A model generated the notes under the pieces. It was not told the DNA's origin. It worked only from the letters and a program-made list of their open reading frames with translations, and searched no databases. A DNA stretch of 64,000 nt from an uncultured Hyphomicrobiales bacterium (GTDB lineage: Bacteria > Pseudomonadota > Alphaproteobacteria > Rhizobiales > Xanthobacteraceae): the NCBI GenBank assembly GCA_964538565.1, contig CAZIGW010000055.1:1344-65343 (forward strand), written 5' to 3'. The position numbers were made by a program, and so were the translations under genes. Positions 28,347 to 48,858 of the stretch are shown here, piece by piece (position 1 is the stretch's first letter; each line of letters starts with the position of its first letter).

Positions 28347-29639
28347 ATGGATCAGTACCTGCGTGAAATCCACGCCGACGACATCAACCCCCGCTACAAC
28401 TGGAACCGCGCCCTGCCGGCGCTCGGCACCATGGGGGTCGACTTCGAGGAACGGGTGGACTACCGGCGGCTGCACCGCTATCGCCTCAGCCGTGTGAAAC
28501 AGGCGCTGGAGAACTCCGAACTCGGCGCGCTGCTCGTCTTCGACGTCAACAACATCCGCTACATCACCTCGACCAAGATCGGCGAGTGGGAGCGCGACAA
28601 GCTCTGCCGCTGGGCGCTGCTCACCCGCACCGGCGATCCGATCCTGTGGGACTTCGGCTCGGCCGCCGTGCACCACAAGCTGTTCGTGCCGTGGCTCAAG
28701 CCGGAGAACTGCAAGGCCGGGCTCATCGGCCTGCGCGGCACCGTCAATCCCTCGTTCGGGCTGATGACGCGCCACGCCGAGGAGATCGCCGCGCTCATCC
28801 GCGAAGCCGGCGTCGCCGACATGCCGATCGGGGTCGACATCATCGAGCCGCCGATGATGTTCGAGCTGGAGAAGGCCGGCCTGAAGGTCGCCGACGGCCA
28901 GCAGGTGATGCTGGAAGCGCGCGAGATCAAGAACATCGACGAGATCGCGCTGCTCAACCGCGCGGCCGCGATGGTGGACGGCGCCTATCACCTCATCAAC
29001 GAGGAGCTCAAGCCCGGCGTGCGCGAGAACGACATCGTCGCCAAGGTGAACGAGTTTCTCTATCGCAACGGCTCCGACGACGTGGAGGCGATCAACGCCA
29101 TCTCGGGCGAGCGCTGCAATCCGCACCCGCACAACTTCACCGACCGTATGCTGCGGCCGGGCGACCAGGCGTTCTTCGACATCCTGCAGTCGTTCATGGG
29201 CTACCGCACCTGCTACTACCGCACGTTCAACGTCGGCCGCGCCACCCCGGTGCAGCACGACGCCTACAAGAAGGCGCGCGAGTGGCTCGATCGCGCGATC
29301 GAGCTGATCAAGCCCGGCGTCACCACCGACCGCGTCTGCAGCGTGTGGCCGAAGGCCGAGGAGTTCGGCTTCCCGGACGAGATGTCGGCGTTCGGCCTGC
29401 AGTTCGGCCACGGGCTCGGGCTTGCGCTGCACGAGCGCCCGATCATCAGCCGGGTCGTCTCGATGACGCACCCGACCGAGATCAAGGAAGGCATGGTGTT
29501 CGCGCTCGAGACCTACTGCCCCGCGACCGACGGCTATTCGGCCGCGCGCATCGAGGAGGAGGTCGTGGTCACCGACAAGGGCTGCCGCGTGATCACCCTG
29601 TTCCCGGCCGAGGAACTGCCGATCGCCAACCGCTATTGA
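28347..29639 (+). CDS. M24-family (creatinase/prolidase fold) hydrolase with an atypical metal-ligand set
   Basis: Tail of ORF 28035..29639 from ATG 28347 (AAGGAGAGGGA SD). Creatinase-N-like domain followed by a pita-bread domain. Ligand positions are D278, C289 (normally Asp), H355 (GHGLG), E388 and E403. Confidence 0.8.
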   Translation: MDQYLREIHADDINPRYNWNRALPALGTMGVDFEERVDYRRLHRYRLSRVKQALENSELGALLVFDVNNIRYITSTKIGEWERDKLCRWALLTRTGDPILWDFGSAAVHHKLFVPWLKPENCKAGLIGLRGTVNPSFGLMTRHAEEIAALIREAGVADMPIGVDIIEPPMMFELEKAGLKVADGQQVMLEAREIKNIDEIALLNRAAAMVDGAYHLINEELKPGVRENDIVAKVNEFLYRNGSDDVEAINAISGERCNPHPHNFTDRMLRPGDQAFFDILQSFMGYRTCYYRTFNVGRATPVQHDAYKKAREWLDRAIELIKPGVTTDRVCSVWPKAEEFGFPDEMSAFGLQFGHGLGLALHERPIISRVVSMTHPTEIKEGMVFALETYCPATDGYSAARIEEEVVVTDKGCRVITLFPAEELPIANRY

Positions 29640-29703: not shown

Positions 29704-30666
29704 TCAGCCTTCGAGCCCGCTCGGGACGTTCTTGTTCTCGCTCGCAAGCTTCATGCCCGACGCGAGCGCCATCGTCTCCATCAGGGCGGCGAAGTCCTTC
29801 TGCAGATAGGCCTGCGGATCGGGCTGCAGCATCGCGGCGCCGAAGTGGCTCTGCAGCACTTCGCGCGCGGCGGCGGTCACCGGCATCGGCACGTCGTGCT
29901 CGCGCGCGAGTTCGAGGCCGAGATCGAGATCCTTGCGCAGAAGCTCCGGTGTGAACGTCGTCGTCCAGTCGAGATTGACGAGCGCCGGGCTCTTGTAGCG
30001 CGTGAACATCGAGCCCATCACGCTGTTGTTCATGAAGGCGAGGAACGCGTGGCGCGGCACGCCCATCTTGTTGGCGAGCAGCGTGATCTCGATCAGGTTC
30101 TCGATCACGACGCCGAGCATCACGTTGTGGGCGATCTTGCAGATACGCGCGAGCTCTCCGTCGCCTACGAACGAGACGCCCTGCGGCGCGAACACCTCGA
30201 TCATCGGCATCACCGTCTTGCACGCGGCTTCGGGCCCGGAGATCACCGCGGAGAGCCGGCCCGCCTTGATGACCTTGGCGTTGCCGCTCACCGGCGCGGC
30301 GACGAAATCGACGCCCTTTTCCTTGAGCCGGGCGCGGACGGCGGCCGATTCCTCGACCGCGATGGTCGAACAGTCGACGAAGATGCCGGGCAGCTTGTCC
30401 TTGGCGTTGGCGACGATGCCGTCCTTGCCGAAATAGACCTGCTCGAGATCCTTGCCGGTCGACACGATCGCGAACAGCACGTCGACCCCGGCGAGTTCGA
30501 CCGGCTCGTCGACCACCTTTCCGCCGATGGCGGAGAGCGGCTCGGCCTTGGCGCGGGTGCGGTTCCAGATCGACACGTCATAGCCGGCCTTCAACAGCCG
30601 TTCGGCCATCGGGTAGCCCATTCGCCCCACGCCGATCCAGCCGATCTTCTGCTTGCCCTGCGCCAT
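29704..30666 (-). CDS. NAD(P)-dependent beta-hydroxyacid dehydrogenase (HIBADH/tartronate semialdehyde reductase family)
   Basis: ORF 29704..30666(-). Rossmann motif IGWIGVGRMGYPMAERL. 6PGDH-type NAD-binding and C-terminal helical domains. Confidence 0.85.
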   Translation of the reverse strand: MAQGKQKIGWIGVGRMGYPMAERLLKAGYDVSIWNRTRAKAEPLSAIGGKVVDEPVELAGVDVLFAIVSTGKDLEQVYFGKDGIVANAKDKLPGIFVDCSTIAVEESAAVRARLKEKGVDFVAAPVSGNAKVIKAGRLSAVISGPEAACKTVMPMIEVFAPQGVSFVGDGELARICKIAHNVMLGVVIENLIEITLLANKMGVPRHAFLAFMNNSVMGSMFTRYKSPALVNLDWTTTFTPELLRKDLDLGLELAREHDVPMPVTAAAREVLQSHFGAAMLQPDPQAYLQKDFAALMETMALASGMKLASENKNVPSGLEG

Positions 30667-31058
30667 GATTTGTCTCCATCGGGGTACGCGGCGCGCTTGC
30701 CCGCGCGTGAGCCGAGGCCCCTATCACAGCGCCTCCGGGGCTTCAACCGCGTGCGCGCGCAGGTCTGCGCGGCGGTGCGACGAAGGGTCTCCGGCCTGCC
30801 CATGCTTTGCCCGATCCAAGAGCCCGCGCCGCAACGTATGCTTGTCGCGGCGCGCCGGGACGGACTATTCTCGGCGCCCACAGGCCGGGCAACCGACAAC
30901 AACAAACCAGGCCGGACCGGGAGGAAAACGATGGCTCGGGCGTTCCGCGCGGCAGCGCAGCCGGACACCGCAATTTGCGCAGAAATCTCCGCGCCGGCCG
31001 ACCCCGCGGCCGCCGCGCGCCCGCCCGCCTTGCACCGCGCGTGATCGCCCGACGTCCG

Positions 31059-31898
31059 ATGCCCAGCGCCATTCCTGCCGCAGCCCACGACCAGCCGCTT
31101 CCCGCCGAACCGGCAGTGGACAAGACCGGCAGCCGCCTGCGCGCCGCCGCGCGGGTCGCATTTCCGTTCGTCGTCGTTGGAGGCCTGTGGGAGATCGTCG
31201 CCCACCTCGGCATCTTCCCGGCGCGGCTGTTTCCGTCGATCGAGGACGTTTTCGCGACCTTCGTGCAGCTCGCCGCCTCCGGCGTGCTGCTGCACCACGC
31301 GATCGACACCGTCATCCGCCTGCTCGCCGGATTTGCGCTCGCGGCCGTCGCCGGCGTGGCGATCGGCATCGCGATGGGGCGTTCACGCTTCGCCGAAGAC
31401 ATCTTCCTCCCCCTGGTGAGCATCGGAGCGCCCATTCCGGGGCTCGCCTATGCACCGCTTTTTCTGCTGTGGTTCGGACTCGGCAACGTATCCGCCGTCC
31501 TGCTGGTCGGCTTCGTCTCGGCCTTTCCGGTGATCATCAACAGCTGGACGGGTGTGAAAGCCGTCAAGGACATCTGGGTGCGCTCCGCGCAGGCGATGGG
31601 GGCCGACAACCGGCGCCTGTTCCGGCTGGTGATCGTGCCGGGCGCATTGCCCTACATCCTCACCGGCCTGCGTCTCGGGCTGGCGCAGGCCTGGCGCATC
31701 CTCGTGGCGGTGGAGATGCTCGCGGCGGTTCCCTGGGGCCTCGGCTGGCTCATCTTCGGGGCGCGGGAATTCCTCAACACTGACGTCATGCTGGCCGGCA
31801 TCGCGGTGATCGCCGTCATCGGGCTGGCGCTCGAGAAGCTCGTGTTCCAGCGGCTCGAAGAGTTCACGGTCGTGCGCTGGGGGATGATGGTCGCATGA
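31059..31898 (+). CDS. NitT/TauT-family ABC permease (1 of 2)
   Basis: Tail of ORF 30807..31898 from ATG 31059. Motifs FPFVVVGGLWEIVAHLGIFPARLFPS and MGADNRRLFRLVIVPGALPYILTGLRL, typical of SsuC/TauC-like permeases. Confidence 0.85.
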   Translation: MPSAIPAAAHDQPLPAEPAVDKTGSRLRAAARVAFPFVVVGGLWEIVAHLGIFPARLFPSIEDVFATFVQLAASGVLLHHAIDTVIRLLAGFALAAVAGVAIGIAMGRSRFAEDIFLPLVSIGAPIPGLAYAPLFLLWFGLGNVSAVLLVGFVSAFPVIINSWTGVKAVKDIWVRSAQAMGADNRRLFRLVIVPGALPYILTGLRLGLAQAWRILVAVEMLAAVPWGLGWLIFGAREFLNTDVMLAGIAVIAVIGLALEKLVFQRLEEFTVVRWGMMVA

Positions 31899-32686
31899 GC
31901 GGGCGCGGCGAACGCATGCATTCCTTCGTGCGCGCGAGCGTCACGCTCATGTTCGTCGCCGCCGCCTACGAGGCGACCGCGCGCAGCGGCTTCTTCGCCC
32001 CGGCGCTGCTGCCGACGCTGCCGACCGTCACCCACACGCTCGTCGGCATGCTGGCGGACGGCACCATGCTCGACCACGCCGCGCACACGCTCCTGCGCGT
32101 GCTGGTCGGCTTTGCGTTTTCCGTCGCGGTCGGGCTTCCGCTCGGCATCCTGATGGCGCGCGTGCGCGCAGTCGAGAACTTCGTGCTGCCGCTGGCGAGC
32201 GCGCTGATGCCGATCCCCTCGCTCGCCTGGGTGCCGGTGTTCATCCTGTGGTTCGGCATCGGCGACACCGTCGCCGTCCTGATCGTGTTCTACGCCTCGC
32301 TGTTCCCGATGCTGCTCAACACGTGGTCGGGTGTACGCGCGGTCAATCCGCTGTGGCTGCGGGCGGCCGGCGCCATGGGGGCGAGCGAGCGCGCGCTGTT
32401 CTGGAAGGTGATCATCCCGGGCGCCTCGCCGTTCATCATCGTCGGCCTGCGCCAGGCCTTCCTGCGCTCCTGGATCGCGGTGGTCGGCGCCGAAATGCTG
32501 GCGGCCTCCGACTGGGGCCTCGGCTGGGTGATCTTCGACGCCAAGGAATTCCTCAACGCCGACGTCATGCTCGCCGCGCTCGCCGTCATCGGCTGCATCG
32601 GCTTCGTGTTCGAGCGGCTGGTGTTCGGCTCGCTCGAGCGCGCGACCGTCATGCGCTGGGGCATGGTACGGCCGACCAAGACGTAG
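31895..32686 (+). CDS. NitT/TauT-family ABC permease (2 of 2)
   Basis: ORF 31895..32686, ATGA overlap with the previous permease. Motif MGASERALFWKVIIPGASPFIIVGLRQ. Confidence 0.88.
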   Translation: MSGRGERMHSFVRASVTLMFVAAAYEATARSGFFAPALLPTLPTVTHTLVGMLADGTMLDHAAHTLLRVLVGFAFSVAVGLPLGILMARVRAVENFVLPLASALMPIPSLAWVPVFILWFGIGDTVAVLIVFYASLFPMLLNTWSGVRAVNPLWLRAAGAMGASERALFWKVIIPGASPFIIVGLRQAFLRSWIAVVGAEMLAASDWGLGWVIFDAKEFLNADVMLAALAVIGCIGFVFERLVFGSLERATVMRWGMVRPTKT

Positions 32687-32710
32687 AACCGCAGAGAAAC
32701 GGAAACCGGA

Positions 32711-33472
32711 ATGCTGCCGATCGAAGTGCGCGACGTCTCCCTCATCTATGCGACGCCCAGCGGCAAGGTGCCGGGCGTGCAAGGCGTCAGCTTCGCCATG
32801 GAGGCATCGGAGTTCCTCTGCATCGTCGGCCCGAGCGGTTGCGGCAAGTCGACGCTGCTCAACATCATCGCGGGATTCCTGAGCCCGGCGGCCGGCGAGA
32901 TCCGCATCGGCGGCAAGGCGGTGACCGGCCACGGGCTCGACCGCGGCGTCGTGTTCCAGGACTTCGCGCAGCTGTTTCCCTGGCGCACCGCGCTCGGCAA
33001 CGTCGCCTTCGGGCTGGTGATGAAGGGCGTCGGCAAGGCCGAGCGCGAAGAGATCGCCATGAAGCAGCTTCGCCTGGTGAAGCTGGAAAAATTCGCCCGA
33101 TCCTATCCGCATCATCTCTCGGGCGGCATGCAGCAGCGCGTCGCCATCGCCCGCGCGCTCGCCTACAACCCGGCGGTGCTGCTGATGGACGAGCCGTTCG
33201 CCGCGCTCGACGCGCTGACCCGCGACGATATGCAGCGGCTGTTGGCCGACGTATGGCGCGAGACGCGCAAGACCGTGATCTACGTGACCCACAACGTCGC
33301 GGAAGCGGTCTATCTCGCCGACCGGGTCATCGTCATGACCCCGCACCCCGGCACGGTGAAGACCGAGGTGCCGATCGCGCTGCCGCGGCCGCGCGATCCG
33401 CTGAGCGTCGAATTTCTGGAGCACCAGAAGGAACTCCTTCGCTACCTCGGCGAACAGGCCGGGAGCGCCTGA
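32711..33472 (+). CDS. NitT/TauT-family ABC ATP-binding protein
   Basis: ORF 32711..33472. Motifs GPSGCGKST, LSGGMQQRVAIARAL, LLMDEPFAALD. Confidence 0.9.
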   Translation: MLPIEVRDVSLIYATPSGKVPGVQGVSFAMEASEFLCIVGPSGCGKSTLLNIIAGFLSPAAGEIRIGGKAVTGHGLDRGVVFQDFAQLFPWRTALGNVAFGLVMKGVGKAEREEIAMKQLRLVKLEKFARSYPHHLSGGMQQRVAIARALAYNPAVLLMDEPFAALDALTRDDMQRLLADVWRETRKTVIYVTHNVAEAVYLADRVIVMTPHPGTVKTEVPIALPRPRDPLSVEFLEHQKELLRYLGEQAGSA

Positions 33473-33516
33473 CGAGGAGCAAAGGGCCGATCCGTCACCG
33501 AGAGGGAGGAAGCAAC

Positions 33517-34509
33517 ATGACAACACGGCACGCAGGAATGACCCGCCGCCAGGTCCTCGCCGCCAGCGGCGCGGGCGTGCTGGCCGCCGGGCTCGGACCC
33601 TCGCTGCCCGCGCTCGCACTCGCGACCGTGCGCCAGGGGTATCAGACGAACATCTGGGGCATGCCGACTTACTATCTGATGCGGTCGGGCCTGCTGGAGA
33701 AGCACGGCATCAAGTTCGAGGAATTCGCGGTGCCGTCCGGCAACCTCACCATGCAGCAGATGGTCGCCCGCCAGGTCGATCTCGGCACCTATGCGGGCCA
33801 GTCCTTCATCATCGGCAATGCGCGCGGCGGCCTCGTCGCGATCGCCAACATCGAATACGTGGGCCGCACCACGCGCGTCATGGCGCGCAAGGAGCTCAAC
33901 ATCAAGAAGATCGAGGACCTGCGCGGCAAGAAGGTCGCCAACCAGACCGGCTCCTCGATCGGCAACGTGTTCGTCGACACGATCGCGCCGGCGCACGGCC
34001 TCAAGAAGGGCGACTATCAGGAAGTCCGCATGGACGTGAACGACATGGTGGCGGCCATGGCGGCCAAGACCGTGGACGCCATGGTCAACGTTGAGCCCTA
34101 CAACGCCATCGCCGAAGCGGACGGCATCGCGACGACCATCATGGACTACTGGGACGTCGACAAGATGCCGGTGTTCATGGCGGCGACGCCCGAATTCGTG
34201 CAGCAGAATCCCGACACGGTCGTGGCCTATCTGAAGGCCTGGCTCGACGCCGGGCGCGACTTCAAGGAGAACCCGAAGAAGGTGGCCGACGTGATCTACG
34301 CCTTCTACAAGGAGAAGGGCTACAAGATGTCGCTCGACACCTTCCAGAAGGCGATGTCGCGCATCGAGGTCAACCCCGGCTTTCCGAAGGACCTCGACCC
34401 CTACATGCAGGAGCAGGCGGAGATCCTGCTCAAGGCGAAGAAGATCAAGGCGATTCCGGACTGGAAAAAGGCACTGCGCACGGAATTCATGGACAAGGCC
34501 CGGGCCTGA
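33517..34509 (+). CDS. NitT/TauT-family (NMT1/SsuA-like) periplasmic binding protein with Tat-type signal
   Basis: Tail of ORF 32248..34509 from ATG 33517 (GGAGGAAG SD). Signal MTTRHAGMTRRQVLAASGAGVLAAGLGPSLPALALA. Confidence 0.82.
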   Translation: MTTRHAGMTRRQVLAASGAGVLAAGLGPSLPALALATVRQGYQTNIWGMPTYYLMRSGLLEKHGIKFEEFAVPSGNLTMQQMVARQVDLGTYAGQSFIIGNARGGLVAIANIEYVGRTTRVMARKELNIKKIEDLRGKKVANQTGSSIGNVFVDTIAPAHGLKKGDYQEVRMDVNDMVAAMAAKTVDAMVNVEPYNAIAEADGIATTIMDYWDVDKMPVFMAATPEFVQQNPDTVVAYLKAWLDAGRDFKENPKKVADVIYAFYKEKGYKMSLDTFQKAMSRIEVNPGFPKDLDPYMQEQAEILLKAKKIKAIPDWKKALRTEFMDKARA

Positions 34510-34576
34510 ACCCGGCCGCCGCCGGGCGCGCCGTGCAGGCCTGTTGATCCCCGCGCGCATGAAGACTAAACGAGGA

Positions 34577-34600
34577 GGCCGGCGCGTCGCCGGCCCTTTC
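34577..34600 (+). terminator. Intercistronic hairpin (possible attenuating terminator or mRNA stabiliser) between the SBP gene and the LVIVD gene
   Basis: GGCCGGCG-CGT-CGCCGGCC (perfect 8 bp) followed by the weak tail CTTTC. Confidence 0.3.
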
Positions 34601-34649
34601 GCCGCCGGACCCGAATTTCCGTTTTTGTTGATCCCGCATGGAGAGCCGC

Positions 34650-35900
34650 ATGAACGTCGCCGAGAAGAACCCGACAAAAAAGGGCATGTCCGAACCGATT
34701 ACGTGGAATTTCAAGCTGCTCGCCCAGCACGAACTCGACGGCTTCGGCGGCATGGGCGAAGGGATGGCGGTCCAGGTCGCCAAGGACGGCCGCCGCATCA
34801 TCTGGCTCGCGCACGAGAGCGCGCCGAAGAACTTCACGGCCGTCGACGTCTCCGACCCGCGCAAGCCGAAGGTCGTGGTGCAGACGGATCTGCCGCAGAG
34901 CCACATGCGCTCGAACTCGCTGGAGATCTCGGGCGACATCATGGCGGTCGCCTACCAGACCCAGAAGGTCGGGCAGCAGCCGGCCGGCTTCGAGCTGTTC
35001 GACATCTCCGTGCCGGAGAAGCCGAAGTCGATCGTCTTCGTGGACGCCTCGGGTCCCTATTCGCGCGGCGTTCACCAGCTCTGGTTCTGCGACGGCGAAT
35101 ACGTCCACATGGCGTCCGGCGCGGCCGACTTCAAGCCGACGCATCCGCTCGACGACCAGTGCTACCGCATCTTCGACGTGCGCAACCCCTCGAAGCCGAC
35201 CGAGGTCGGCCGCTGGTGGCTGCCCGGCACGCGCGAGGGCGACGGCGCGCCGCCGCCGGTGCGCCACACGCACATGGACAAGGGCTTCCGCGCCCACAAC
35301 ACCAACGTCTATCCGCAGCGTCCCGACCGCTGCTACCTCGGCTACATCGACGCCGGCATGTTCATCATGGATATTTCCGACAAGTCGAAGCCGAAGCCGA
35401 TCGCCCGCTGGGACAATTCGCCGCCCTACACCGGCTTCACCCACACGGTGCTGCCGCTGTTCGAGCGCAACCTGCTGGTCGTCACCGACGAGTCGACCGT
35501 CGACGACGCCAAGGACTGGCCGAAGCTGATCTGGATCCTCGACGCGCGCGAGGAGAGCAATCCGGTTCCGATCGCCACCTGCCCGATTCCGGACTACGAG
35601 TCGTTCATGCACCGCGGCGGGCGCTTCGGCGCGCACAACATCTTCGAGAACACGCCCTCGCCGTACGCCTGGCACTCCGACCAGGTGATCGTCGGCACGT
35701 TCTTCAACGGCGGGCTGCGCGCCTACGACATCTCCAATCCGTACCAGCCGAAGCCGGCCGCGACCTTCGTGCCGCCGGCCCCGGCACTCAATCCGCACGG
35801 CACGATCCAGCTCAACGACGTGTTCATCGACGAGCGCGAGATCGTCTACACGGTCGACCGCCACAGCGGTGGGCTCTACATCCTGGAGATGGACTTCTGA
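34650..35900 (+). CDS. Cytoplasmic LVIVD-repeat beta-propeller protein, function unknown
   Basis: Track ORF 34638..35900. The second ATG (34650) has GGAGAG 4 nt upstream. Repeated blade motif: NFTAVDVSDPRKPKVV, GFELFDISVPEKPKSI, CYRIFDVRNPSKPTEV, GMFIMDISDKSKPKPI, GLRAYDISNPYQPKPA. No signal peptide. Confidence 0.8.
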   Translation: MNVAEKNPTKKGMSEPITWNFKLLAQHELDGFGGMGEGMAVQVAKDGRRIIWLAHESAPKNFTAVDVSDPRKPKVVVQTDLPQSHMRSNSLEISGDIMAVAYQTQKVGQQPAGFELFDISVPEKPKSIVFVDASGPYSRGVHQLWFCDGEYVHMASGAADFKPTHPLDDQCYRIFDVRNPSKPTEVGRWWLPGTREGDGAPPPVRHTHMDKGFRAHNTNVYPQRPDRCYLGYIDAGMFIMDISDKSKPKPIARWDNSPPYTGFTHTVLPLFERNLLVVTDESTVDDAKDWPKLIWILDAREESNPVPIATCPIPDYESFMHRGGRFGAHNIFENTPSPYAWHSDQVIVGTFFNGGLRAYDISNPYQPKPAATFVPPAPALNPHGTIQLNDVFIDEREIVYTVDRHSGGLYILEMDF

Positions 35901-35989
35901 CCGCGCTGCGGATCTTCCCCTCCGCGGAGGCGGGACTCTTCGGCCGCCGGCACAAGCGCGAACGCGGCACGCGTCTCCCGGTCACGATC

Positions 35990-36955
35990 GTGACCGGGTT
36001 TCTCGGAGCCGGAAAGACCACTCTGGTGAGGCACTTTCTGGCTTCGCCGGAAGGGCGCGGCACCGCCGTGGTGGTCAACGAGTTCGGGGCGACCGGCATC
36101 GACGATGCGCTCCTGCGCGGCAGCACCGACGAGACCGTGCTGCTCGGCAACGGCTGCCTGTGCTGCAACGTCCGCACCGACCTGCAGGTCGCGCTGCGCA
36201 CGCTGGTCGCCGAGCGCGAGCGCGGCCTCGTCCCGCACTTCGGCCGCATCGTGATCGAGACGAGCGGTCTCGCGGACCCCGGCCCCATTCTCTCGACATT
36301 TGCGACCGACCGGGCGCTGGGCGGCGAATTTTGCGTCGAGACGGTGCTGGTGGCGGTCGATGCCGCGACCGGCATTTCGACCCTCGATCAGTTCTCCGAG
36401 GCGCGCCGCCAGGCGATCCTCGCCGACCGGCTGGTGTTGACGAAGACCGATCTCGCCGACGACGCCACCCTCGTGCAGCTGCGCGCGCGCCTGCGCGTGC
36501 TCAATCCGCGCGCGGACATCAGGCTGGCGCGGCACGGCGCGCTTGATCCGGCCTGCTTCGTCTCGGCGCCCGCGCAGGCCGGACCCGCGTCGGGATTCCT
36601 CGCCGAGGCCGCGCACAGCGACGGCATCCAGAGCTTCGTGCTGGTCGATGAACGTCCGATCGCCTGGGAGACGTTCGAACGCGCGATGCAGACGCTCCTT
36701 TCGCTGCGCGGGCGCGATCTTCTGCGCATCAAGGGGCTGCTGCATGTCGCGGGAGCGCGCGGGCCGATCGTGGTGCAGTTCGTTCAGCACCTCGCGCATC
36801 CGCCGGTCGAGCTCACCGCCTGGCCCGATGCGGGGCGCGCGAGCCGCCTCGTCTTCATCGCCCGCGACGTGAGCCAGCGCCAGGTCGAGGACCTGTTCGC
36901 GGCCGTGCGTGCGCTGGGAACATCCTCCCGCGAGGGGAATTCCGTTTCGCCGTAG
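35990..36955 (+). CDS. COG0523 / CobW-family G3E GTPase (putative metallochaperone); true start probably upstream and non-canonical
   Basis: Tail of track ORF 34544..36955. P-loop GFLGAGKTT, CxCC motif GCLCCN, ETSGLADP, LTKTDL, CobW C-terminal domain. The only canonical start after the upstream stop is GTG 35990, which would remove the conserved beta-1 strand LPVTIV. CTG 35897 overlaps the upstream TGA. Confidence 0.8.
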   Translation: MTGFLGAGKTTLVRHFLASPEGRGTAVVVNEFGATGIDDALLRGSTDETVLLGNGCLCCNVRTDLQVALRTLVAERERGLVPHFGRIVIETSGLADPGPILSTFATDRALGGEFCVETVLVAVDAATGISTLDQFSEARRQAILADRLVLTKTDLADDATLVQLRARLRVLNPRADIRLARHGALDPACFVSAPAQAGPASGFLAEAAHSDGIQSFVLVDERPIAWETFERAMQTLLSLRGRDLLRIKGLLHVAGARGPIVVQFVQHLAHPPVELTAWPDAGRASRLVFIARDVSQRQVEDLFAAVRALGTSSREGNSVSP

Positions 36956-37010
36956 AGCGTACGATCGAGAAGGACGGCGCGGGCGCGGCGGACCGCCGCC
37001 TCGCCGTTGC

Positions 37011-37868
37011 TCAATTGTGGTCGCGGCCGGTGATTTCCTCCTGCCAGGGCGCGACCCAATGCTCGAACACGCCGATCAGGCTGTTGAGACCGATCGCCAT
37101 CACCATCAGGATGATGATCGGCACGAACATCGTCGCGGTGTCGAAATTGTTGGCGGAGTTGATGATGATGGCGCCGAGCCCGGAAATCGTGGTGAAGAAC
37201 TCGGCGATCACCATGCCGACCACGGCGCGGCCGACCGCGAGGCGGATGCCCGCCATGATGTAGGGCAGCGTCGCCGGCAGGATGATGCGCCGCAGGATCA
37301 CGTGATCCGGCGCCACGAAGGACTTGCCGACCTCGATCAGGCTCTTGGGGACCGCGGTCACACCGAGCCAGGTGTTGATGCAGATCGGGAACACCGACAT
37401 CAGCAGCACGACCGCCGCCTTCACGGCAAAGCCGAGCCCGAGCCACAGCACGAGCAGCGGCACCAGCGCAACCAGCGGCATGGCGTAGCCGGCGGTGACG
37501 TAGATTCCGAGCCCGGCCTCGAGTGCGCGGAAGCGCCCGATCACGAGCCCGAGCGGCACCCCGATGAGGATCGCGAGCCCGTAGCCGAGCACGAACGGCT
37601 GCAGACTCTCGAACAGGGCCGAGCCCAGCTTGCCGCTGCGCAGGAGATCCACGAAGGCGACCGCGATGGCGCTCGGATAGGACCCGAACACCGGATTGAT
37701 GTCGCGGCCGAAGATCTCCCACAGGACGACCGCTCCGCCGAGCGACAGCGTGGTGATCGCCCAGCGCGGCAACGTGCGTCTTGCGGGCGCGGTCACGGGC
37801 TTGTCCGCGGCATCCTGAGGCTGCGTTGTCTGAACCCGGGCGGTTTGACTGCCGACGATCTCGGTCAT
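37011..37868 (-). CDS. NitT/TauT-family ABC permease (second system)
   Basis: C-terminal 285 codons of track ORF 37011..38543(-), from ATG 37868. Motifs LSLGGAVVLWEIFGRDINPVFGSYPS and KSFVAPDHVILRRIILPATLPYIMAGIRL. Confidence 0.85.
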   Translation of the reverse strand: MTEIVGSQTARVQTTQPQDAADKPVTAPARRTLPRWAITTLSLGGAVVLWEIFGRDINPVFGSYPSAIAVAFVDLLRSGKLGSALFESLQPFVLGYGLAILIGVPLGLVIGRFRALEAGLGIYVTAGYAMPLVALVPLLVLWLGLGFAVKAAVVLLMSVFPICINTWLGVTAVPKSLIEVGKSFVAPDHVILRRIILPATLPYIMAGIRLAVGRAVVGMVIAEFFTTISGLGAIIINSANNFDTATMFVPIIILMVMAIGLNSLIGVFEHWVAPWQEEITGRDHN

Positions 37869-37900
37869 GGTGTTTCCACTCGTCGAATTCGGTGAAGCGT

Positions 37901-38683
37901 TCAGTGCAGCACGGCGCCGTCCGCGTGCAGCGCCTTCCACACCCGATACCGGGTCTCGGCGAATTCCTTGAGGCCGCGCACGACGCCGAGGTCCCCGCGC
38001 GGCCGCTTCAACGGAACGTCCATTGTCTCCGTCACGCGGCCCTCGCGCATCACCACGATGCGGTCGGCGATGAGCACCGCCTCGTCGAGGTCGTGCGTGA
38101 CGAACAGGATCGTCTTCCGGGTACGGGCGTGAATGTCGAGCAGCTCCGCCTGCATGGTCTCGCGGGTCTGCGCGTCGAGCGCGCCGAACGGCTCGTCCAT
38201 CAGCAGCACCTTGGGGTCGATCGCCAGCGCCCGGGCGATGCCGACGCGCTGCTTCATGCCGCCGGAGAGCTGATGCGGCCGCCGGTTCCAGGAATCGCGC
38301 AGGCCGACGAGGTCGAGATAGCGACTGGCCGTATCGCGCAGCTGCGCGCCGCGCATCCCCTTCATCTCGAGCGCGAACATCACGTTCTGCAGGGCGGTCA
38401 GCCACGGCAGCAGCTCGGCATGCTGGAACACCATGCCGCGATCGTGGCCACAGCCCTTGACCTCGCGCCCGTCGACCGTCACGCGGCCGCCGGTCGCGGA
38501 ATCGAGCCCCATGGCGATGCGCAGCGCGGTCGTCTTGCCGCAACCGCTCGGGCCGATGAGAGCAACGATCTCACCGTCGCGGACGGTGAAATTCACCCGC
38601 CGAAGCGCGTCGATCGTCTGCAGTTCACCCCCCACACGGAGCGTGAACCGTTTGGAAACGTCGATCAGACTGACTTCGCCCAT
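37901..38683 (-). CDS. NitT/TauT-family ABC ATP-binding protein (second system)
   Basis: C-terminal 260 codons of track ORF 37901..38962(-), from ATG 38683. Motifs [35 protein letters not shown]. Confidence 0.88.
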   Translation of the reverse strand: MGEVSLIDVSKRFTLRVGGELQTIDALRRVNFTVRDGEIVALIGPSGCGKTTALRIAMGLDSATGGRVTVDGREVKGCGHDRGMVFQHAELLPWLTALQNVMFALEMKGMRGAQLRDTASRYLDLVGLRDSWNRRPHQLSGGMKQRVGIARALAIDPKVLLMDEPFGALDAQTRETMQAELLDIHARTRKTILFVTHDLDEAVLIADRIVVMREGRVTETMDVPLKRPRGDLGVVRGLKEFAETRYRVWKALHADGAVLH

Positions 38684-39005
38684 ACCGCACTCCGCTGACG
38701 TTGCGCCGGCGCGACCGGCCGAGCCGAAGCACTGCCGCCCGTGCCCCGACCCTGCAAGTTCGAGGCCGATGCCGGTCCCGGGCACCCCGGTCCGGCGGCA
38801 GCCCTCGCAGCCATGCCTTCCGGCCCCTTTTTGGTTCGAAAACCGGTGCCCCGGCAACGTCGCCCGGCCCCGCCCCGGGCGGCAATCTAGCGACACCGGG
38901 CGGTTTGGTACACCGGTGTCTTTGCCGCAAGCCCACGGTCGGGGCCGGCACCCCGGCCCCACCGGCCCCGTGCCGGGATCTCGGAGCCTGCGACCTCGCG
39001 TCCCG

Positions 39006-39033: not shown

Positions 39034-39165
39034 CGCCGATGTTCCAATGACCGCGCGTCTGGACTAGGCTCGCGGTTCCGAAGCGTTCGTCAAGACGCCG
39101 CACGCCCGGGCTACGGCGGCCCCTGGATCCGCCGGACCTGGCAATTTCCGGGAGGCACTCCAGCC

Positions 39166-39633
39166 ATGCGCCAAAAATTTTCCCTGAACGTCAACGGGCA
39201 GGTCCACTCGGTGGAAGCCGATCCCGACATGCCGTTGCTCTATGCGCTGCGTAACGACATCGGCCTCAACAATCCGCATTTCGGTTGCGGGCTCGCGCAG
39301 TGCGGCGCCTGCACGGTTCATCTCGACGGCCAGCCCACCCGTTCGTGCATCACACCGCTCTCGGCCGTCGGCGACGCCAAGATCGTCACGCTGGCCGGGC
39401 TCGGCACGGAGGAGCATCCGCATCCGCTGCAGAAGGCCTACGTGGAAGAGCAGGTGCCGCAGTGCGGCTACTGCATCAACGGCTGGATCATGACCGCCGC
39501 CGCGCTCCTGCGCGAGAAGAAGAAGCCGACCGACGCCGAGATCAAGGACGCCCTGTCGGGGTTGAAGTGCCGCTGCGGGACGCATGTCGGCATTCTGCGC
39601 GCGGTGCGCCGCGCCGCCGAGATGATGGGCTGA
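39166..39633 (+). CDS. (2Fe-2S)-binding small subunit of an IorAB/aldehyde-oxidase-type molybdoenzyme (pair 1)
   Basis: Tail of ORF 38701..39633 from ATG 39166 (GGGAGG SD). Cluster motifs [29 protein letters not shown]. Confidence 0.9.
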   Translation: MRQKFSLNVNGQVHSVEADPDMPLLYALRNDIGLNNPHFGCGLAQCGACTVHLDGQPTRSCITPLSAVGDAKIVTLAGLGTEEHPHPLQKAYVEEQVPQCGYCINGWIMTAAALLREKKKPTDAEIKDALSGLKCRCGTHVGILRAVRRAAEMMG

Positions 39634-39644
39634 GGGAGGCGATC

Positions 39645-41948
39645 ATGACCAAGATGGACAAAGCCACCGCGTTCTCCCGCCGCGCAATCCTCAGGTCGGG
39701 TGGCGCGCTCGTCGTTTCGATCGGCATGCCGGTCGGTTTCAACACGGTGCTCGACATCCAAGCGGCTTACGCGCAGGGAGCGGCCTTCGCCGTCGACACC
39801 AAGCCGCCGCTCGTGCCGAGCGAGCTTGCCTCCTACATCGCGATCAACGCCGACGGCTCCGTCTCCGCCTTCTTCGGCAAGATGGACATGGGCCAGGGCC
39901 TGTTCGTCGCCATCGGCCAGATCGTGGCCGAAGAACTCGACGTGCCGTTCCACAGCGTCAAGGTGTTCATGGGGGACACCGCGACGAGCGTGAACCAGGG
40001 CGGCGCCTCCGGCTCGACCGGCATCCAGGACGGCGGCAAGCAGATGCGCGTGGCCGCCGCCGAGGCGCGGCGCGTGCTCGTCGAAATGGCCGCCGCCAAG
40101 CTCGGGCTGCCGTCCGATCAGCTGACGGTGACCGACGGCATCGTGCACGCCAAGAGCGACCTGTCGAAGAAAGTCAGCTACGGCGAGCTGATCGGCGGCC
40201 GCTACTTCAACGTCCAGCTCGACTGGAACAAGAAGTACGGAAACCCGCTCTACGCGCCCGGCAAGGCGCAGCCGAAGCCGGCGAGCGCGCACAGGATCGT
40301 CGGCCAGCCGATCAAGCGCGAGGACATCGCCCCGAAGGTCTACGCGCGGCAGGACTTCGTCACCGACATCAGGCGGCCCGGCATGCTGCACGGGCGGATG
40401 ATCCGCCCGGCGGTCGCCGGATCGGTCCCGGTGAAGGTCGACGAAAGCTCGATCAAGGACATCGCGGGCGCGAAGGTCGTCTGGCAGAAGGGTTTCCTTG
40501 CCGTCGTCGCCGAGCACGAATGGGACGCGATCCAGGCGGCGCAGAAGCTGAAGGTCGAGTGGTCGAACGCCAGCCCGCCCTTCCCCGAGCAGGCCTCGCT
40601 CTACGACCACATCCGCAAGACCGCCGCGCGCACGCGCCAGGTCGAGAAGGAGAACGGCAACGTCGAGGAGGCGTTCAAGAACGCCGCCCGTGTGATCGAA
40701 GCCGAGTACGAGTGGCCGTTCCAGTCGCACGCCAGCATGGGCCCGGCCTGCGCCGTGGTGGAGATCAAGGACGGCCTCGTCACCTGCTGGACCGGCTCGC
40801 AGAAGTCGCACTTCGTGCGCGAGGGCCTCGCCGACACGCTCGGCATTCCGGTCGAGAAGATCCATGCGATCTGGGTGCCGGGCCCCGGCTCCTACGGCCG
40901 CAACGACGCCGACGACGCCGCCATGGACGCGGCGGTGCTGGCGCAGGCGACCGGCCGCCCGGTGCGCGTGCAGTACATGCGTGAACAGGGCACCGGCTGG
41001 GATCCCAAGGGCCCGGCCTCGATCCACCGCGCGCGCGTGGCGATCGACGCGTCCGGCAAGGTGGTGGCCTACGAGTTCCTCAGCAAGGGATTCTCGCGCG
41101 TCGACGTCAACACCAACGGCGGCCACGCCAGGGACACGCTCGCCGGGCACTTCCGCGACGTGGCGCTGAAGTCGGGCGACGGGTTCGGCGTGCCGGCGGA
41201 ATCCTACGTGTTCGACAACAAGCGGCTCGCCTGGGAAACGATCCCGCCGCTGCTCGACCGCGCCTCGCCGCTGCGCAGTTCGCATCTGCGCGACCCGGTC
41301 GGACCGCAGATCCACTTCGCGAGCGAGTCCTTCATGGACGAGGTCGCGGCGGCCCTCAACGTCGACCCGGTCGAATTCCGGCTGCGCCACATCAAGGACC
41401 CGCGCGACGTCGCCGTCATCAAGGCGGCGGTGGGGAAGTCGGGCTGGCAGACGCGGCCCTCGCCGCGCAAGGACCAGACCGGCGAGACCGTCTCCGGCCG
41501 CGGCATCGCCTACGCGCAGCGCAACGGGACGCGCGTCGCCATCGTGGCGGAGGTCGAGATCAACCGCCGCACCGGCAAGATCTGGGCGCGCAAGTTCACC
41601 GTCGCGCACGACTGCGGCCAGATCATCAACCCGGACGGTCTGACCAAGACGATCGAGGCCAACATCGTGCAGGGGACGAGCCGCACGCTGTGGGAGGAGG
41701 TGAAGTTCGACAGGAAGTCGGTCACCAGCGTCGACTGGATGACCTACCCGATCCTCGACATCACCGAGACCCCGGAGACGATCGACGTGACGCTGATCAA
41801 CCGGCCCGAGATCGCGCCTTCCGGCGCCGGCGAGCCGTCGACCCGTCCGGTCGCGGCGGCCATCGCCAACGCGATCTTCGACGCGACCGGCGTGCGCATC
41901 CGGCGCGTGCCGTTCTCGCCTGACCACGTGAAATCGGCCCTGTCCTGA
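39645..41948 (+). CDS. Molybdopterin-binding large subunit, IorB/aldehyde-oxidase family, Tat-exported (pair 1)
   Basis: Tail of ORF 39285..41948 from ATG 39645 (GGGAGG SD). Tat signal FSRRAILRSGGALVV. XDH-family a/b hammerhead and Mo-binding domains (GQGLFVAIGQIVAEEL, SGAGEPSTRPVAAAIANAI). Confidence 0.88.
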   Translation: MTKMDKATAFSRRAILRSGGALVVSIGMPVGFNTVLDIQAAYAQGAAFAVDTKPPLVPSELASYIAINADGSVSAFFGKMDMGQGLFVAIGQIVAEELDVPFHSVKVFMGDTATSVNQGGASGSTGIQDGGKQMRVAAAEARRVLVEMAAAKLGLPSDQLTVTDGIVHAKSDLSKKVSYGELIGGRYFNVQLDWNKKYGNPLYAPGKAQPKPASAHRIVGQPIKREDIAPKVYARQDFVTDIRRPGMLHGRMIRPAVAGSVPVKVDESSIKDIAGAKVVWQKGFLAVVAEHEWDAIQAAQKLKVEWSNASPPFPEQASLYDHIRKTAARTRQVEKENGNVEEAFKNAARVIEAEYEWPFQSHASMGPACAVVEIKDGLVTCWTGSQKSHFVREGLADTLGIPVEKIHAIWVPGPGSYGRNDADDAAMDAAVLAQATGRPVRVQYMREQGTGWDPKGPASIHRARVAIDASGKVVAYEFLSKGFSRVDVNTNGGHARDTLAGHFRDVALKSGDGFGVPAESYVFDNKRLAWETIPPLLDRASPLRSSHLRDPVGPQIHFASESFMDEVAAALNVDPVEFRLRHIKDPRDVAVIKAAVGKSGWQTRPSPRKDQTGETVSGRGIAYAQRNGTRVAIVAEVEINRRTGKIWARKFTVAHDCGQIINPDGLTKTIEANIVQGTSRTLWEEVKFDRKSVTSVDWMTYPILDITETPETIDVTLINRPEIAPSGAGEPSTRPVAAAIANAIFDATGVRIRRVPFSPDHVKSALS

Positions 41949-43268: not shown

Positions 43269-45608
43269 ATGGCTGCGGCGACCGCCACGAACTCCGATCG
43301 CGCCTTGCGCCTCGAGGATCCGCCGCTGCTGCGCGGGGAAGGCCGTTTCGTCGACGACGTGCGGCGACCCAACCAGGCGTTTGCCGCGTTCGTCCGCTCG
43401 CCGCATGCCGCCGGCCGCATCCGCAAGATCGACACCGCGGACGCGTCGCGCGCGCCCGGCGTGGTCGCGGTTCTGACCGGGGCCGACATGATAGCAGCGG
43501 GCGCCGGCAGCATCTCGCGCCACCCGCCGATGGTCGGCCGCGGCGGCGCCAGGCTCGTGATGCCGTTCCGGCCCGCGCTCGCCGACGAACGGGTGGCGCA
43601 CGTCGGCCAGGCGGTTGCGCTCGTGATCGCCGATTCCGCCGGCCAGGCGCAGGACGCCGCCGAACGGGTCGCGGTCGACTACGAACCGCTGCCCGCCGTC
43701 ACGGACGTCCGCGCGGCCCTCGAAAAGGATGCGCCGCAGGTCTGGAGCGAAGCACCCGGCAACGTGGCGCTCGACTGGCCGGGCCCCGTGGCGGACGACG
43801 GCGCGAACGCGCGCGCGGTCGAGGAGGCATTCGCCGCGGCCGCGCACATCGCCCGGGTCTCGCTCGTCAACCAGCGGCTCGTCGTCGCCACCATGGAGCC
43901 GCGCGGCGCGACCGCCGAGTACGACGCAGCCGGTGATACCTATACGCTGCGCACCTGCTCGCAGAGCGCCGCGGTGGTGCGCGACCAGCTTGTCTCGATC
44001 ATGAACTGGCCGCGCGAGCGCCTGCGGGTCATCAGCGAGGATGTGGGCGGTGCCTTCGGGATGAAGACCCCCGTATACCCGGAGTACCCGGCGCTGCTCG
44101 TCGCCGCCAAGCACACCCGCCGGCCGGTGCACTGGATGTCGACCCGCTCCGAGGCGTTTCTGAGCGACAACCAGGGACGCGACGGAATTCTCGAGGCGGA
44201 GCTGGCGCTCGACGAAAAGGGAAAATTCCTCGCGCTGCGCGTACGCGAGCTTGCGAGCCTCGGCGCCTTCGTGACGCCGGCCGGCGCGCATCTCGCGACC
44301 ACCAATTTCGCGCGCTGCTTTCCCGGCATGTACCGCATTCCCCGCATCGACGTCGGGGTGAAGTGCGTGTTCACCAACACGGTGCCGACCGGACCCTATC
44401 GCGGCGCCGGACGGCCGGAAGCGAACTATCTGCTCGAGCGGCTGGTCGACGAGGCCGCGCGCGTCAGCGGCATCGACCGCGTGAGCCTGCGGCGGCGCAA
44501 CCTCATTCCGAAATCGGCGATGCCGTATCGCACGCCGGTCGGCACCACATACGACAGCGGCGATTTCCCGGCCGTGTTCGACAGGGCGCTAGCAGCGAGC
44601 GGCTACAAGGAATTTTCCCAACGCCGGCGCGAGGCCAGAAAGCGCGGAAAGTTTCGCGGCATCGGCATCTGCTGTTTCGTCGAGCACTCGGGCGGCCTGC
44701 CGACCGAGGGCGCCGCGATGACGTTTCCGGGCGATGGCCGGATCGAGGTGGGCATCGGCGTGCAGGCGACCGGCCAGGGCCATGCGTCGGTGTTCGGCCG
44801 CCTCGCCGCCGCGCGGCTCGGCGTGCCGGCCGATCGCGTCACGGTGCGGCAGGGCGACACGCAGCTCGGCGTGGCGAGCTCGGCTTCGGTCGCGTCCCGC
44901 TCGGCGATGGTGGTCGGCACCGCGATCGTGCGCGTCGCAGAGGCGGTGGTCGAGAAGGGACGCAAGGTTGCCGCGCAACTGCTCGAAGCGGCCGATTCCG
45001 ACATCACCTACCGGGACGGCATGTTCGCGGTCGCGGGCACCGACCGGCGGCTGTCGCTGTTCGAGGTCGCGGCACGGGCGAAAGACCTTCATGCACGCGG
45101 CGAGATCGCCGAGACGCTCGACACCAATCTCACGGCCGACACGCCTCAGACGTTTCCCAACGGCTGCCACGTCGCCGAGGTGGAGGTCGATCCGGAGACC
45201 GGCGTCGTCTGCGTGGTCACCTACACGGCGGTCGACGATTGCGGCAACGTGCTCGACCACATGATCGTCGAGGGACAGGTGCAGGGCGGCATCGCCCAGG
45301 GGCTCGGCCAGGCGCTGTTCGAGAATGTCGTGTACGACGGCGACAGCGGTCAACTCGTTACCGGGTCGTTCATGGACTACGCCATGCCGCGCGCGAGCGA
45401 CATGCCGGCGATCGTCGGCTCGGAGCTGTCCGTCGCCGCCACGACCAATCCGCTCGGCGTGAAGGGCGTCGGCGAGGCGGGCACGATCGGTTCGCTCGCC
45501 GCCATCATGAACGCCATCGCGGATGCGCTGCCGGAAGGAGCCGGCGCCAGGCTCGACATGCCGGCGACGCCCCAGCGGGTGTGGGACGCTTGCCGGTCGG
45601 CGTCATAG
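43269..45608 (+). CDS. Xanthine dehydrogenase/CoxL-family molybdopterin-binding large subunit (form II CoxL-like loop), no adjacent FAD subunit
   Basis: ORF 43269..45608. N-terminus LRLEDPPLLRGEGRFVDDV. Active-site loop GPYRGAGRPEA (about 44391-44414). C-terminus GVKGVGEAGTIGSLAAIMNAIADAL. Confidence 0.88.
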   Translation: MAAATATNSDRALRLEDPPLLRGEGRFVDDVRRPNQAFAAFVRSPHAAGRIRKIDTADASRAPGVVAVLTGADMIAAGAGSISRHPPMVGRGGARLVMPFRPALADERVAHVGQAVALVIADSAGQAQDAAERVAVDYEPLPAVTDVRAALEKDAPQVWSEAPGNVALDWPGPVADDGANARAVEEAFAAAAHIARVSLVNQRLVVATMEPRGATAEYDAAGDTYTLRTCSQSAAVVRDQLVSIMNWPRERLRVISEDVGGAFGMKTPVYPEYPALLVAAKHTRRPVHWMSTRSEAFLSDNQGRDGILEAELALDEKGKFLALRVRELASLGAFVTPAGAHLATTNFARCFPGMYRIPRIDVGVKCVFTNTVPTGPYRGAGRPEANYLLERLVDEAARVSGIDRVSLRRRNLIPKSAMPYRTPVGTTYDSGDFPAVFDRALAASGYKEFSQRRREARKRGKFRGIGICCFVEHSGGLPTEGAAMTFPGDGRIEVGIGVQATGQGHASVFGRLAAARLGVPADRVTVRQGDTQLGVASSASVASRSAMVVGTAIVRVAEAVVEKGRKVAAQLLEAADSDITYRDGMFAVAGTDRRLSLFEVAARAKDLHARGEIAETLDTNLTADTPQTFPNGCHVAEVEVDPETGVVCVVTYTAVDDCGNVLDHMIVEGQVQGGIAQGLGQALFENVVYDGDSGQLVTGSFMDYAMPRASDMPAIVGSELSVAATTNPLGVKGVGEAGTIGSLAAIMNAIADALPEGAGARLDMPATPQRVWDACRSAS

Positions 45609-48539: not shown

Positions 48540-48839
48540 ATGAGGGCAGCATTCCTCTGCATCGGCGCGGCAGCGGCCGTCATCTCGACTGCCCCTGCAT
48601 TCGCCGGCCAAGCCGGGACGCCGTTCGGCGTCGCCGCCTGCACGGGCTGTCATCCTGCCCACGCCGGCGCGCCGAACGCGATTCCCTCGTTGGCGGGTCG
48701 CAAGGCGACCGAGATCGAGGATGCGATGCGAGGGTTTCGCGCCGGCGAGCGGCCCGCGACGGTGATGGACCGCATCGCCAAGGGATTTTCCGACGACGAG
48801 ATCCGGGCCATTGCCGCCTGGTACGCCGCCCGGAAATGA
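48540..48839 (+). CDS. Monohaem class I cytochrome c (FccA/SoxE-like partner of the flavoprotein, or electron acceptor of IorAB pair 2)
   Basis: Tail of ORF 47391..48839 from ATG 48540. Signal peptide MRAAFLCIGAAAAVISTAPAFA. Haem motif CTGCH. Confidence 0.8.
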   Translation: MRAAFLCIGAAAAVISTAPAFAGQAGTPFGVAACTGCHPAHAGAPNAIPSLAGRKATEIEDAMRGFRAGERPATVMDRIAKGFSDDEIRAIAAWYAARK

Positions 48840-48858
48840 CGAAGGACGCCGCGCCCGC

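Follow-up and report, generated by a model that had tools for sequence, protein, structure and literature searches.

A putative importer-coupled metalloenzyme of the LVIVD/COG5276 beta-propeller family, remotely homologous to the phosphotriesterase Sb-PTE and paired with a COG0523 GTPase

The haloalkylphosphorus hydrolase Sb-PTE, a phosphotriesterase of Sphingobium sp. TCM1, is to our knowledge the one beta-propeller of solved structure that holds a binuclear metal site, a Mn centre reportedly described by Mabanglo et al. in 2016. Here we describe a remote homologue of this enzyme that is encoded in a stretch of 64,000 nucleotides (nt), hereafter called the window, from an uncultured Hyphomicrobiales bacterium of the Xanthobacteraceae (GenBank assembly GCA_964538565.1, contig CAZIGW010000055.1, positions 1,344 to 65,343). 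Within positions 31059-36955 of the window, six consecutive genes on the + strand code for two permeases, an ATPase and the solute-binding protein (SBP) of an ATP-binding cassette (ABC) importer, for a beta-propeller of the LVIVD/COG5276 family comprising 416 amino acids (aa), and for a COG0523 GTPase. With a probability of roughly 0.55, we regard these genes as an import-plus-one-enzyme module in which a metal-dependent propeller would act on the imported solute and a YjiA-like GTPase would load or maintain its metal.

The propeller family itself has been met before. The role of 'mtrY' (COG5276) in methionine-salvage clusters of Gammaproteobacteria was called 'a mystery' in 2011 (PMC3228920), and in a chloranilic-acid cluster the gene cadB1 adjoins the flavin adenine dinucleotide (FAD) monooxygenase gene cadA and the gene for the TAXI binding protein cadB2 (PMC13191619). 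The product of mtrY belongs to the same LVIVD/COG5276 family as the window protein, to which it is 30-35% identical, has about 400 aa and no signal peptide, and is encoded next to an SBP gene; the likeness of cadB1, which also adjoins an SBP gene, is one of annotation only ('LVIVD repeat-containing', 409 aa). Unlike the propeller described here, however, mtrY and cadB1 follow sugar-type (Peripla_BP_4) or TAXI SBPs, are accompanied by MtnK/MtnA or by a FAD monooxygenase, and have no COG0523 partner. A characterised member of the LVIVD/COG5276 propeller family was not found in the literature. The original prediction, which was made from the sequence alone, knew of no characterised enzyme with this architecture; this statement needs to be qualified, since with Sb-PTE a homologue of the same fold has been characterised and members of the family had already been noticed in the form of mtrY and cadB1.

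For the propeller gene (34650..35900, + strand), the ATG at 34650 is the most likely start codon, since it is preceded by GGAG at a distance of 5-10 nt and since P0001, a protein 96% identical to the propeller, likewise comprises 416 aa. All five LVIVD blade motifs that had been listed beforehand are contained in the translation, and a sixth motif (WILDAREESNP) together with a closing blade brings the total to seven blades, in line with the seven-bladed AlphaFold2 model (pLDDT 93.5, pTM 0.92). Against the Pfam family LVIVD (PF08309), which is also the precomputed domain of the propeller's homologues, the whole protein scores 31.9 bits at a cut-off of 20.2, with no single repeat passing alone. 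The earlier claim that the protein lacks a signal peptide was borne out, as the most hydrophobic 12-mer among the first 50 residues has a mean Kyte-Doolittle value of only 0.68 and no export signal was seen in the N-terminus. Residues 17-27 form a strand in the model, which to judge from the order of strands is probably part of the closing blade. Because the N-terminus is without a hydrophobic segment and because residues 17-27 are a strand, the propeller is predicted to be cytoplasmic. In many close homologues, which form clusters of 131 and 152 sequences and of which three individual proteins and the propellers of three loci are examples, the N-terminus is extended by about 50 residues, a segment with much Lys, Ala, Pro and Thr that is reminiscent of histone H1 (e.g., MAKKSAKKTSKKAAKKVAKKTVKK); this extension is not a signal peptide, and the window propeller keeps only a short remnant of it, MNVAEKNPTKKG.

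The relationship to Sb-PTE (PDB 5hrm, 5ioj) becomes significant only when a family profile is used. With the single propeller sequence, a search of the PDB gave no more than a marginal match to 5hrm (E 0.09), whereas a profile built from an alignment of the query and 26 full-length relatives of 32-44% identity found 5hrm_A among the PDB sequences at E 1.7e-20. The comparison of the propeller family with 5hrm by hhalign yielded a probability of 99.65% (E 3e-24), and in a Foldseek search of the PDB with the predicted structure 5hrm came first (E 4e-15, TM 0.69), while generic WD40 proteins began at 5e-9. The family collected for such comparisons is large: one search scored 5,740 homologues, and another gave at least 2,794 sequence clusters (50% identity). 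Sb-PTE and the propeller share the seven blades and the 'D-x-S-D-P-x-x-P' motifs, but their identity is only about 15-21%, and the propeller is shorter by about 90-170 residues. Moreover, Sb-PTE is secreted or periplasmic and has three disulfides, whereas none of its cysteines 146, 242, 411 and 443 aligns with a cysteine in the presumably cytoplasmic window protein, the third disulfide lying outside the aligned region. The gene context with an ABC importer and a COG0523 gene is likewise unlike that of Sb-PTE, and nothing points to a phosphotriester as the substrate.

As ligands of the metals in Sb-PTE we take Glu201, which would bridge the two, His258 and His317 at one metal (beta site), and His389, Glu407 and His475 at the other (alpha site); when 87 is added to the chain index of 5hrm, these six residues and the four disulfide cysteines all fall on the right residue types (10/10). 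According to the hhalign mapping, four of the six ligands are identical in the window protein, with His258 corresponding to H142, His317 to H216, His389 to H265 and Glu407 to E281, and these four retained ligands are conserved in about 97-98% of the family. His475 aligns with position 332 of the propeller, where 166 of 187 family sequences (89%) have His and the window protein has Phe. Across these 187 sequences a conservation of at least 95% is reached at only 30 positions, and apart from the Asp, Gly and Pro residues that recur in each blade they consist only of H142, H216, H265, E281, H329, N330, E333 and R357, of which the last four are invariant features of the family that are absent from Sb-PTE. 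The His-rich stretch PPVRHTHMDKGFRAHN, to which the original prediction had drawn attention, is indeed part of the translation, but only its H216 is conserved and H206 and H208 are not. Taken at face value, this pattern of conserved residues would be the one expected of a catalytic metal site that is related but not identical to that of Sb-PTE.

The phenylalanine at position 332, encoded at 35643-35645 of the window, looks like a natural variant of a ligand position inside an otherwise highly conserved site. It is also found in P0001, which lies outside the set of 187 sequences, in eight close loci and in one distant relative (P0249), and most of these eight close loci keep an adjacent COG0523 gene. 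The segment at the bridging Glu201 varies by subfamily, and reads MRSNS in the window protein, in contrast to THSHK or TWNxH elsewhere, including the mtrY-type relatives.

Downstream of the propeller gene lies the gene for the COG0523 (G3E) GTPase (35897..36955, + strand; cobW, PF02492, E 5.7e-46; CobW_C, PF07683, E 1.7e-21). The overlap of its reading frame with the TGA of the propeller gene and the intact motifs GFLGAGKTT, GCLCCN and ETSGLADP were confirmed in the translation, which further contains LTKTD. The protein aligns over its full length with YjiA of E. coli (1nij, E 2e-48), but stays below the cut-offs of all named NCBIfam equivalogs (PRK11537/YjiA 197 vs 361, CobW 139 vs 332, ZigA 110 vs 600). 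With the described COG0523-client pairs (nitrile hydratase/Nha3, CobW/cobaltochelatase, ZNG1/METAP1 and ZagA/FolE) the locus shares a G3E GTPase, equipped with the Walker A, CxCC, switch and CobW_C elements, beside a putative metalloenzyme, and the arrangement resembles that of Fe-type nitrile hydratase and its activator. It differs from these pairs in that its candidate client has the beta-propeller fold, for which no COG0523 client has been reported, and in that neither a Zur box nor the context of a B12 riboswitch was seen. The number of established clients of bacterial COG0523 proteins is small, comprising those of CobW and Nha3 (PMC11672702). In the survey of Haas (2009), subgroup 5 was linked to a 'WD40' protein in the order znuCBA-COG0523-WD40-sapB under the control of Zur, which is unlike the arrangement here, and no COG0523 subgroup with NitT/TauT genes was described.

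The conservation of this arrangement was followed in 80 close genome loci with propellers 73-82% identical to the query, which come mostly from Xanthobacteraceae, Pseudolabrys and other Hyphomicrobiales metagenome-assembled genomes (MAGs), and in addition from Xanthobacter, Ancylobacter novellus, Bosea and an Acetobacterales MAG. In 53 of the 69 close loci with enough downstream sequence, a COG0523 gene follows the propeller gene on the same strand within 3 kb, and a reciprocal look-up starting from a COG0523 homologue again finds an LVIVD gene before it. The junctions between the two genes consist of frame overlaps or short spacers, and the GTPase is probably co-translated with the propeller. 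The pairing is kept even where the GTPases have diverged to 36-52% identity, with propellers at 74-79% (six loci), and such diverged pairs include those of Xanthobacter, Ancylobacter, Bosea and the Acetobacterales MAG. An SsuA-like binding-protein gene is found directly upstream of the propeller gene in 48/65 close loci, orthologues of permease 1 (69-84% identity) lie upstream of it in 41 close loci, and permease 2 is conserved in 43. The median identities in the close loci amount to 77% for the propeller, 65% for the COG0523 protein, 72% for the SBP, 76-78% for the permeases and 84% for the ATPase (49 hits). Genes inserted into the ABC cluster in some loci code mostly for TctC-type binding proteins and are uninformative. 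The expectation that propeller and GTPase genes would be neighbours across genomes is thus in agreement with these loci, as is the proposed link with NitT/TauT genes, which recurs in relatives of 40% identity.

A second set of 84 distant loci, whose propellers share 30-65% identity with the query, shows what is common to the wider family. The commonest immediate neighbours of the propeller genes are SBP genes of three unrelated classes, namely Peripla_BP_4 (14/84), NMT1 (6/84) and SBP_bac_1/6/11 (3/84), followed by genes for FAD monooxygenases (6/84). NMT1-type ABC genes flank the 40%-identical propellers, and in one NMT1-ABC operon the propeller gene is placed between two amidohydrolase genes. 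A branch of 30-35% identity, to which mtrY belongs and which is also seen in Klebsiella and Rahnella, is located between a sugar-type ABC system and the genes for MtnK and MtnA, both of which score above the NCBIfam cut-offs. This Mtn-linked branch was met in ten loci, one of them on a Rahnella plasmid, and a gene for a Fe-type alcohol dehydrogenase also adjoins the propeller gene there. A search of plasmids found only propeller relatives of 33% identity, and the family is abundant in soil metagenomes. Given the SBP genes that neighbour the propeller genes across the distant loci, the theme of the family is therefore an importer plus a cytoplasmic propeller, to which the COG0523 partner is a clade-specific addition.

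In the window the importer has the composition of a NitT/TauT system. The genes for permease 1 (31059..31898, +; Pfam BPD_transp_1, E 3.9e-20) and permease 2 (31895..32686, +; BPD_transp_1, E 3.4e-23) overlap by 4 nt at the stop of the former and the start of the latter, and are followed by those for the ATPase (32711..33472, +; ABC_tran, E 1.2e-32) and for a periplasmic binding protein of the SsuA/NMT1 type (~33517..34509, +; NMT1, E 1e-21), the N-terminus of which, MTTRHAGMTRRQVLAASGAG, is a twin-arginine translocation (Tat) signal (TIGR01409 TAT_signal_seq, 17.5 bits, cut-off 16.7). The Pfam and NCBIfam matches confirm in full the order of two permeases, ATPase, Tat-signal binding protein and 416-aa protein on one strand that had been read from the sequence before. 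In this respect the locus is similar to the tauABCD and ssuEADCB operons, which also combine a NitT/TauT importer and an SsuA/TauA-like SBP with a single enzyme, the enzymatic role being putative here; in those operons, however, the enzyme is TauD, a Fe/2-oxoglutarate dioxygenase, or SsuD, a flavin monooxygenase, and here it would be the propeller. A sulfonate might be one possible solute only, as the binding protein scores 141.7 bits against SsuA_fam (TIGR01728) and thus stays below the cut-off of 163.5 bits. The nearest solved structure is that of E. coli SsuA (2x26), found at only E 8e-10.

Taken together, the proposed module would work as follows. A small polar organic solute would be imported by the NitT/TauT ABC transporter with the help of the SsuA/NMT1-type binding protein, itself exported through the Tat pathway, and would then be acted on by the cytoplasmic propeller of 416 aa by means of a metal centre with His and Glu ligands that sits where the central channel opens. 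In evolutionary terms, the centre would be related to the binuclear Mn centre of Sb-PTE, with H142, H216, H265 and E281 and the family-specific H329, N330 and E333 as the likely ligands. The downstream COG0523 protein, its translation coupled to that of the propeller, would use its CxCC site and the hydrolysis of GTP to load the propeller metal or to maintain it. While the data show the genes present, the fold, the homology, and the conservation both of the ligand positions and of the gene neighbourhood, we infer that a metal is bound and which one, that it is transferred from the GTPase to the propeller, and that the transported solute is the substrate of the enzyme. By homology, the propeller would most simply be a hydrolase and the reaction hydrolytic, and oxygenase chemistry would come second, given the FAD-monooxygenase neighbours. 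The best reading is that of a metal-dependent catabolic enzyme with a metallochaperone that is clade-specific and dedicated to it.

Several observations weigh against such a module. Two of the six Sb-PTE ligands are not retained (Glu201 is replaced by M86 and His475 by F332), and the metal site must therefore differ from that of Sb-PTE. The genomes behind the 80 close loci are all related and of Hyphomicrobiales type, which makes the synteny in part a matter of shared ancestry. The COG0523 gene is missing from 16/69 close loci and is adjacent to the propeller gene in only one of the 84 distant loci (L125, with 65% identity for the propeller and 43% for the GTPase), and therefore the pairing is specific to a clade and not family-wide, and the fold does not intrinsically need a chaperone. 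A metal-responsive operator, of the kind that the original prediction had proposed to look for, was not found: the core of the alphaproteobacterial Zur box, which would indicate zinc regulation as in COG0523 subfamilies 1 and 5, with the consensus taken from Additional file 5 of Haas 2009, has no match with up to 3 mismatches in the whole 64-kb window, and the ICE box of Irr has no match anywhere in the window either. Finally, a canonical start of the COG0523 gene is missing, as its frame contains no ATG, GTG or TTG from 35669 onwards until GTG 35990 is reached. The idea of a metalloenzyme client that acts on what the importer brings in is thus strengthened by the homology to Sb-PTE and by the four ligands kept, but weakened by the confinement of the chaperone pairing to one clade.

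With respect to the start of the GTPase, a start at GTG 35990 would delete the strand before the P-loop. It is at the corresponding downstream GTG that gene callers begin P0271 and P0272 (308-310 aa), the closest COG0523 relatives. Most loci have an ATG 31 codons before the P-loop, the same codon being GCG in the window. On an independent contig with a junction 98% identical to that of the window (L167), all three substitutions within 35906-35990 are synonymous in the COG0523 frame (3/3), which suggests that this segment is translated, either via a non-canonical start or by termination-reinitiation, although so few substitutions can give only a hint. A CTG at 35897 forms a CTGA overlap with the propeller stop, and the COG0523 gene is likely to start at this non-canonical codon.

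Among the alternative explanations, the one that fares best assumes that the COG0523 protein acts in metal homeostasis at large or has a different client, such as the M24 protein encoded at 28347-29639 or the molybdenum hydroxylase encoded at 39133-41948, and that its adjacency to the propeller is operon structure inherited within a single bacterial lineage. In favour of this scenario is, besides the clade-specific pairing with its gaps even among close loci, the observation that the M24 and beta-hydroxyacid dehydrogenase genes are found a short way upstream, both in the window and in several loci, three of which have no ABC genes; the dehydrogenase gene, for its part, stays by the propeller gene in five loci without ABC genes. 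Furthermore, Fe-S and Mo subunit genes follow the pair downstream in between 13 and 25 of the close loci, according to how they are counted, and a precedent for an M24 client exists, since eukaryotic ZNG1 loads the M24 enzyme METAP1. Eukaryotic COG0523 proteins are placed in subfamily 5 (Haas 2009). The GTPase of the window, however, is YjiA-like. An M24 gene is located within 10 kb of the propeller gene in only 8/56 close loci and a dehydrogenase gene in 22/56, in contrast to the far more regular position of a COG0523 gene directly after the propeller gene. Propeller-COG0523 adjacency also outlasts extensive divergence of the GTPase. The COG0523 frame either overlaps the propeller stop or follows it after a short spacer, and no Zur box is matched in the window. 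We therefore consider a general factor or another client unlikely, if worth keeping in mind.

It is more doubtful still that the propeller is non-catalytic and serves as a cytoplasmic binding, scaffold or regulatory protein tied to importers, which might for instance sequester the solute after import or tune the transporter, with the COG0523 protein providing a structural metal or being unrelated to it. It is true that SBP genes of three unrelated classes are the commonest neighbours in the distant loci and that cadB2 is of yet another, TAXI-type kind, a breadth that is unusual for a single chemistry, and most of the beta-propellers listed by Foldseek are interaction scaffolds. The sole specific homologue is an enzyme, however, and the residues aligned with its catalytic metal ligands are the most conserved ones of the family, and relatives are also encoded in catabolic clusters, immediately behind FAD monooxygenase genes or flanked by amidohydrolase genes. 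The propeller has also been kept at 73-82% identity, of the same order as the transporter subunits, and gives no sign of relaxed constraint, although this alone would fit a scaffold as well as an enzyme.

That the propeller is instead a copper enzyme of the SBP56/methanethiol-oxidase or the thiocyanate-dehydrogenase/N2O-reductase type which oxidises an imported sulfur compound, a likeness in part entertained in the original prediction, is very improbable, as the weak local match to MtoX (NF052453; 18.4 bits vs a cut-off of 650) covers just one blade motif (residues 348-373), as SBP56, thiocyanate dehydrogenase and N2O reductase are all missing from the Foldseek top 50, where Sb-PTE is clearly first, as thiocyanate dehydrogenase, N2O reductase and the methanethiol oxidase of Hyphomicrobium are periplasmic, unlike the cytoplasmic propeller, and as we know of no COG0523 protein that acts as a copper chaperone, even though a sox cluster lies 13 kb downstream and a distant subclade occurs in methylthioribose salvage clusters.

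Within 30500-37300 no sigma-70-like promoter was found, and the two intergenic regions contain no significant inverted repeats. Between the binding-protein and propeller genes, a GC-rich hairpin (34571..34601, +) is predicted by both the minimum-energy and the centroid fold, with the structure GGCCGGCG-CGU-CGCCGGCC and an 8-bp G/C stem. The z-score of the region is only -0.38, and such a hairpin is not statistically exceptional in G+C-rich DNA, the G + C content being about 68% across the window. Related words (GGCCGGCGC / GCCGGCCTT) are present in 10-14 of 46 homologous spacers, and a k-mer comparison of these gave the GC hairpin only; it may be an mRNA-stabilising or attenuating element. Measured from the stop of the binding-protein gene to residue 14 of the propeller, the spacers range from 55 to about 400 nt and in several loci leave about 15-30 nt before the start, and therefore co-transcription of the two genes would fit in many genomes.

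With regard to the surroundings, the M24 creatinase/prolidase-like protein (28347-29639, +) has its best NCBIfam match in DddP, with only 123 bits at a cut-off of 600, and its gene adjoins the divergently transcribed beta-hydroxyacid dehydrogenase gene (29704-30666, -). Directly after the COG0523 gene, a second pair of NitT/TauT-type permease and ATPase genes is located at 37011-38698 (-). A binding-protein gene for this pair was not seen within the window; in five related loci it is accompanied by an SBP-like gene, judged as such by its signal-like N-terminus. Further downstream, two molybdenum-hydroxylase systems are encoded (39133-41948 and 43269-45608, both +), one with a 2Fe-2S small subunit and a large subunit that carries a Tat signal, the other with a second large subunit, which is CoxL/glyceraldehyde-dehydrogenase-like. 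The thiosulfate-oxidation (sox) cluster at 48811-52228 (+) codes for SoxX (83 bits, cut-off 61), SoxZ (82.6, cut-off 76) and SoxA (232.6, cut-off 110), all of which pass, and a flavoprotein resembling sulfide dehydrogenase/sulfide:quinone oxidoreductase is encoded alongside. In view of this cluster the host is therefore probably a sulfur-oxidising alphaproteobacterium.

The fold and metal centre of Sb-PTE, operons of COG0523 proteins and their clients such as that of nitrile hydratase, and the COG5276 gene with its mysterious role were all known already. New, as far as the literature found shows, are the homology of COG5276/LVIVD propellers to Sb-PTE with retained ligands, their systematic coupling to importers, and the conserved pairing with COG0523. 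On a broader scale one might speculate, though this generalisation is tentative and in our view falls short of being probable, that the cytoplasmic COG5276/LVIVD propellers constitute a large unrecognised class of importer-coupled metalloenzymes, that their His4-5/Glu centre would share an ancestor with that of Sb-PTE but serve other chemistry, and that in soil bacteria of the Xanthobacteraceae type they would have recruited a YjiA-like COG0523 GTPase dedicated to them.

If the proposed module is real, COG0523 metallochaperones would have in this protein their first client with a beta-propeller fold, and the conserved and apparently translationally coupled pair would offer a new and tractable bacterial chaperone-client system, in which the candidate client is compact, confidently modelled and equipped with clear candidate ligands. 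The link to Sb-PTE provides a first mechanistic handle on a large propeller family in that it predicts a metal centre at named residues, and the ligand of the SsuA-like binding protein would lead to a new catabolic or nutrient-scavenging reaction.

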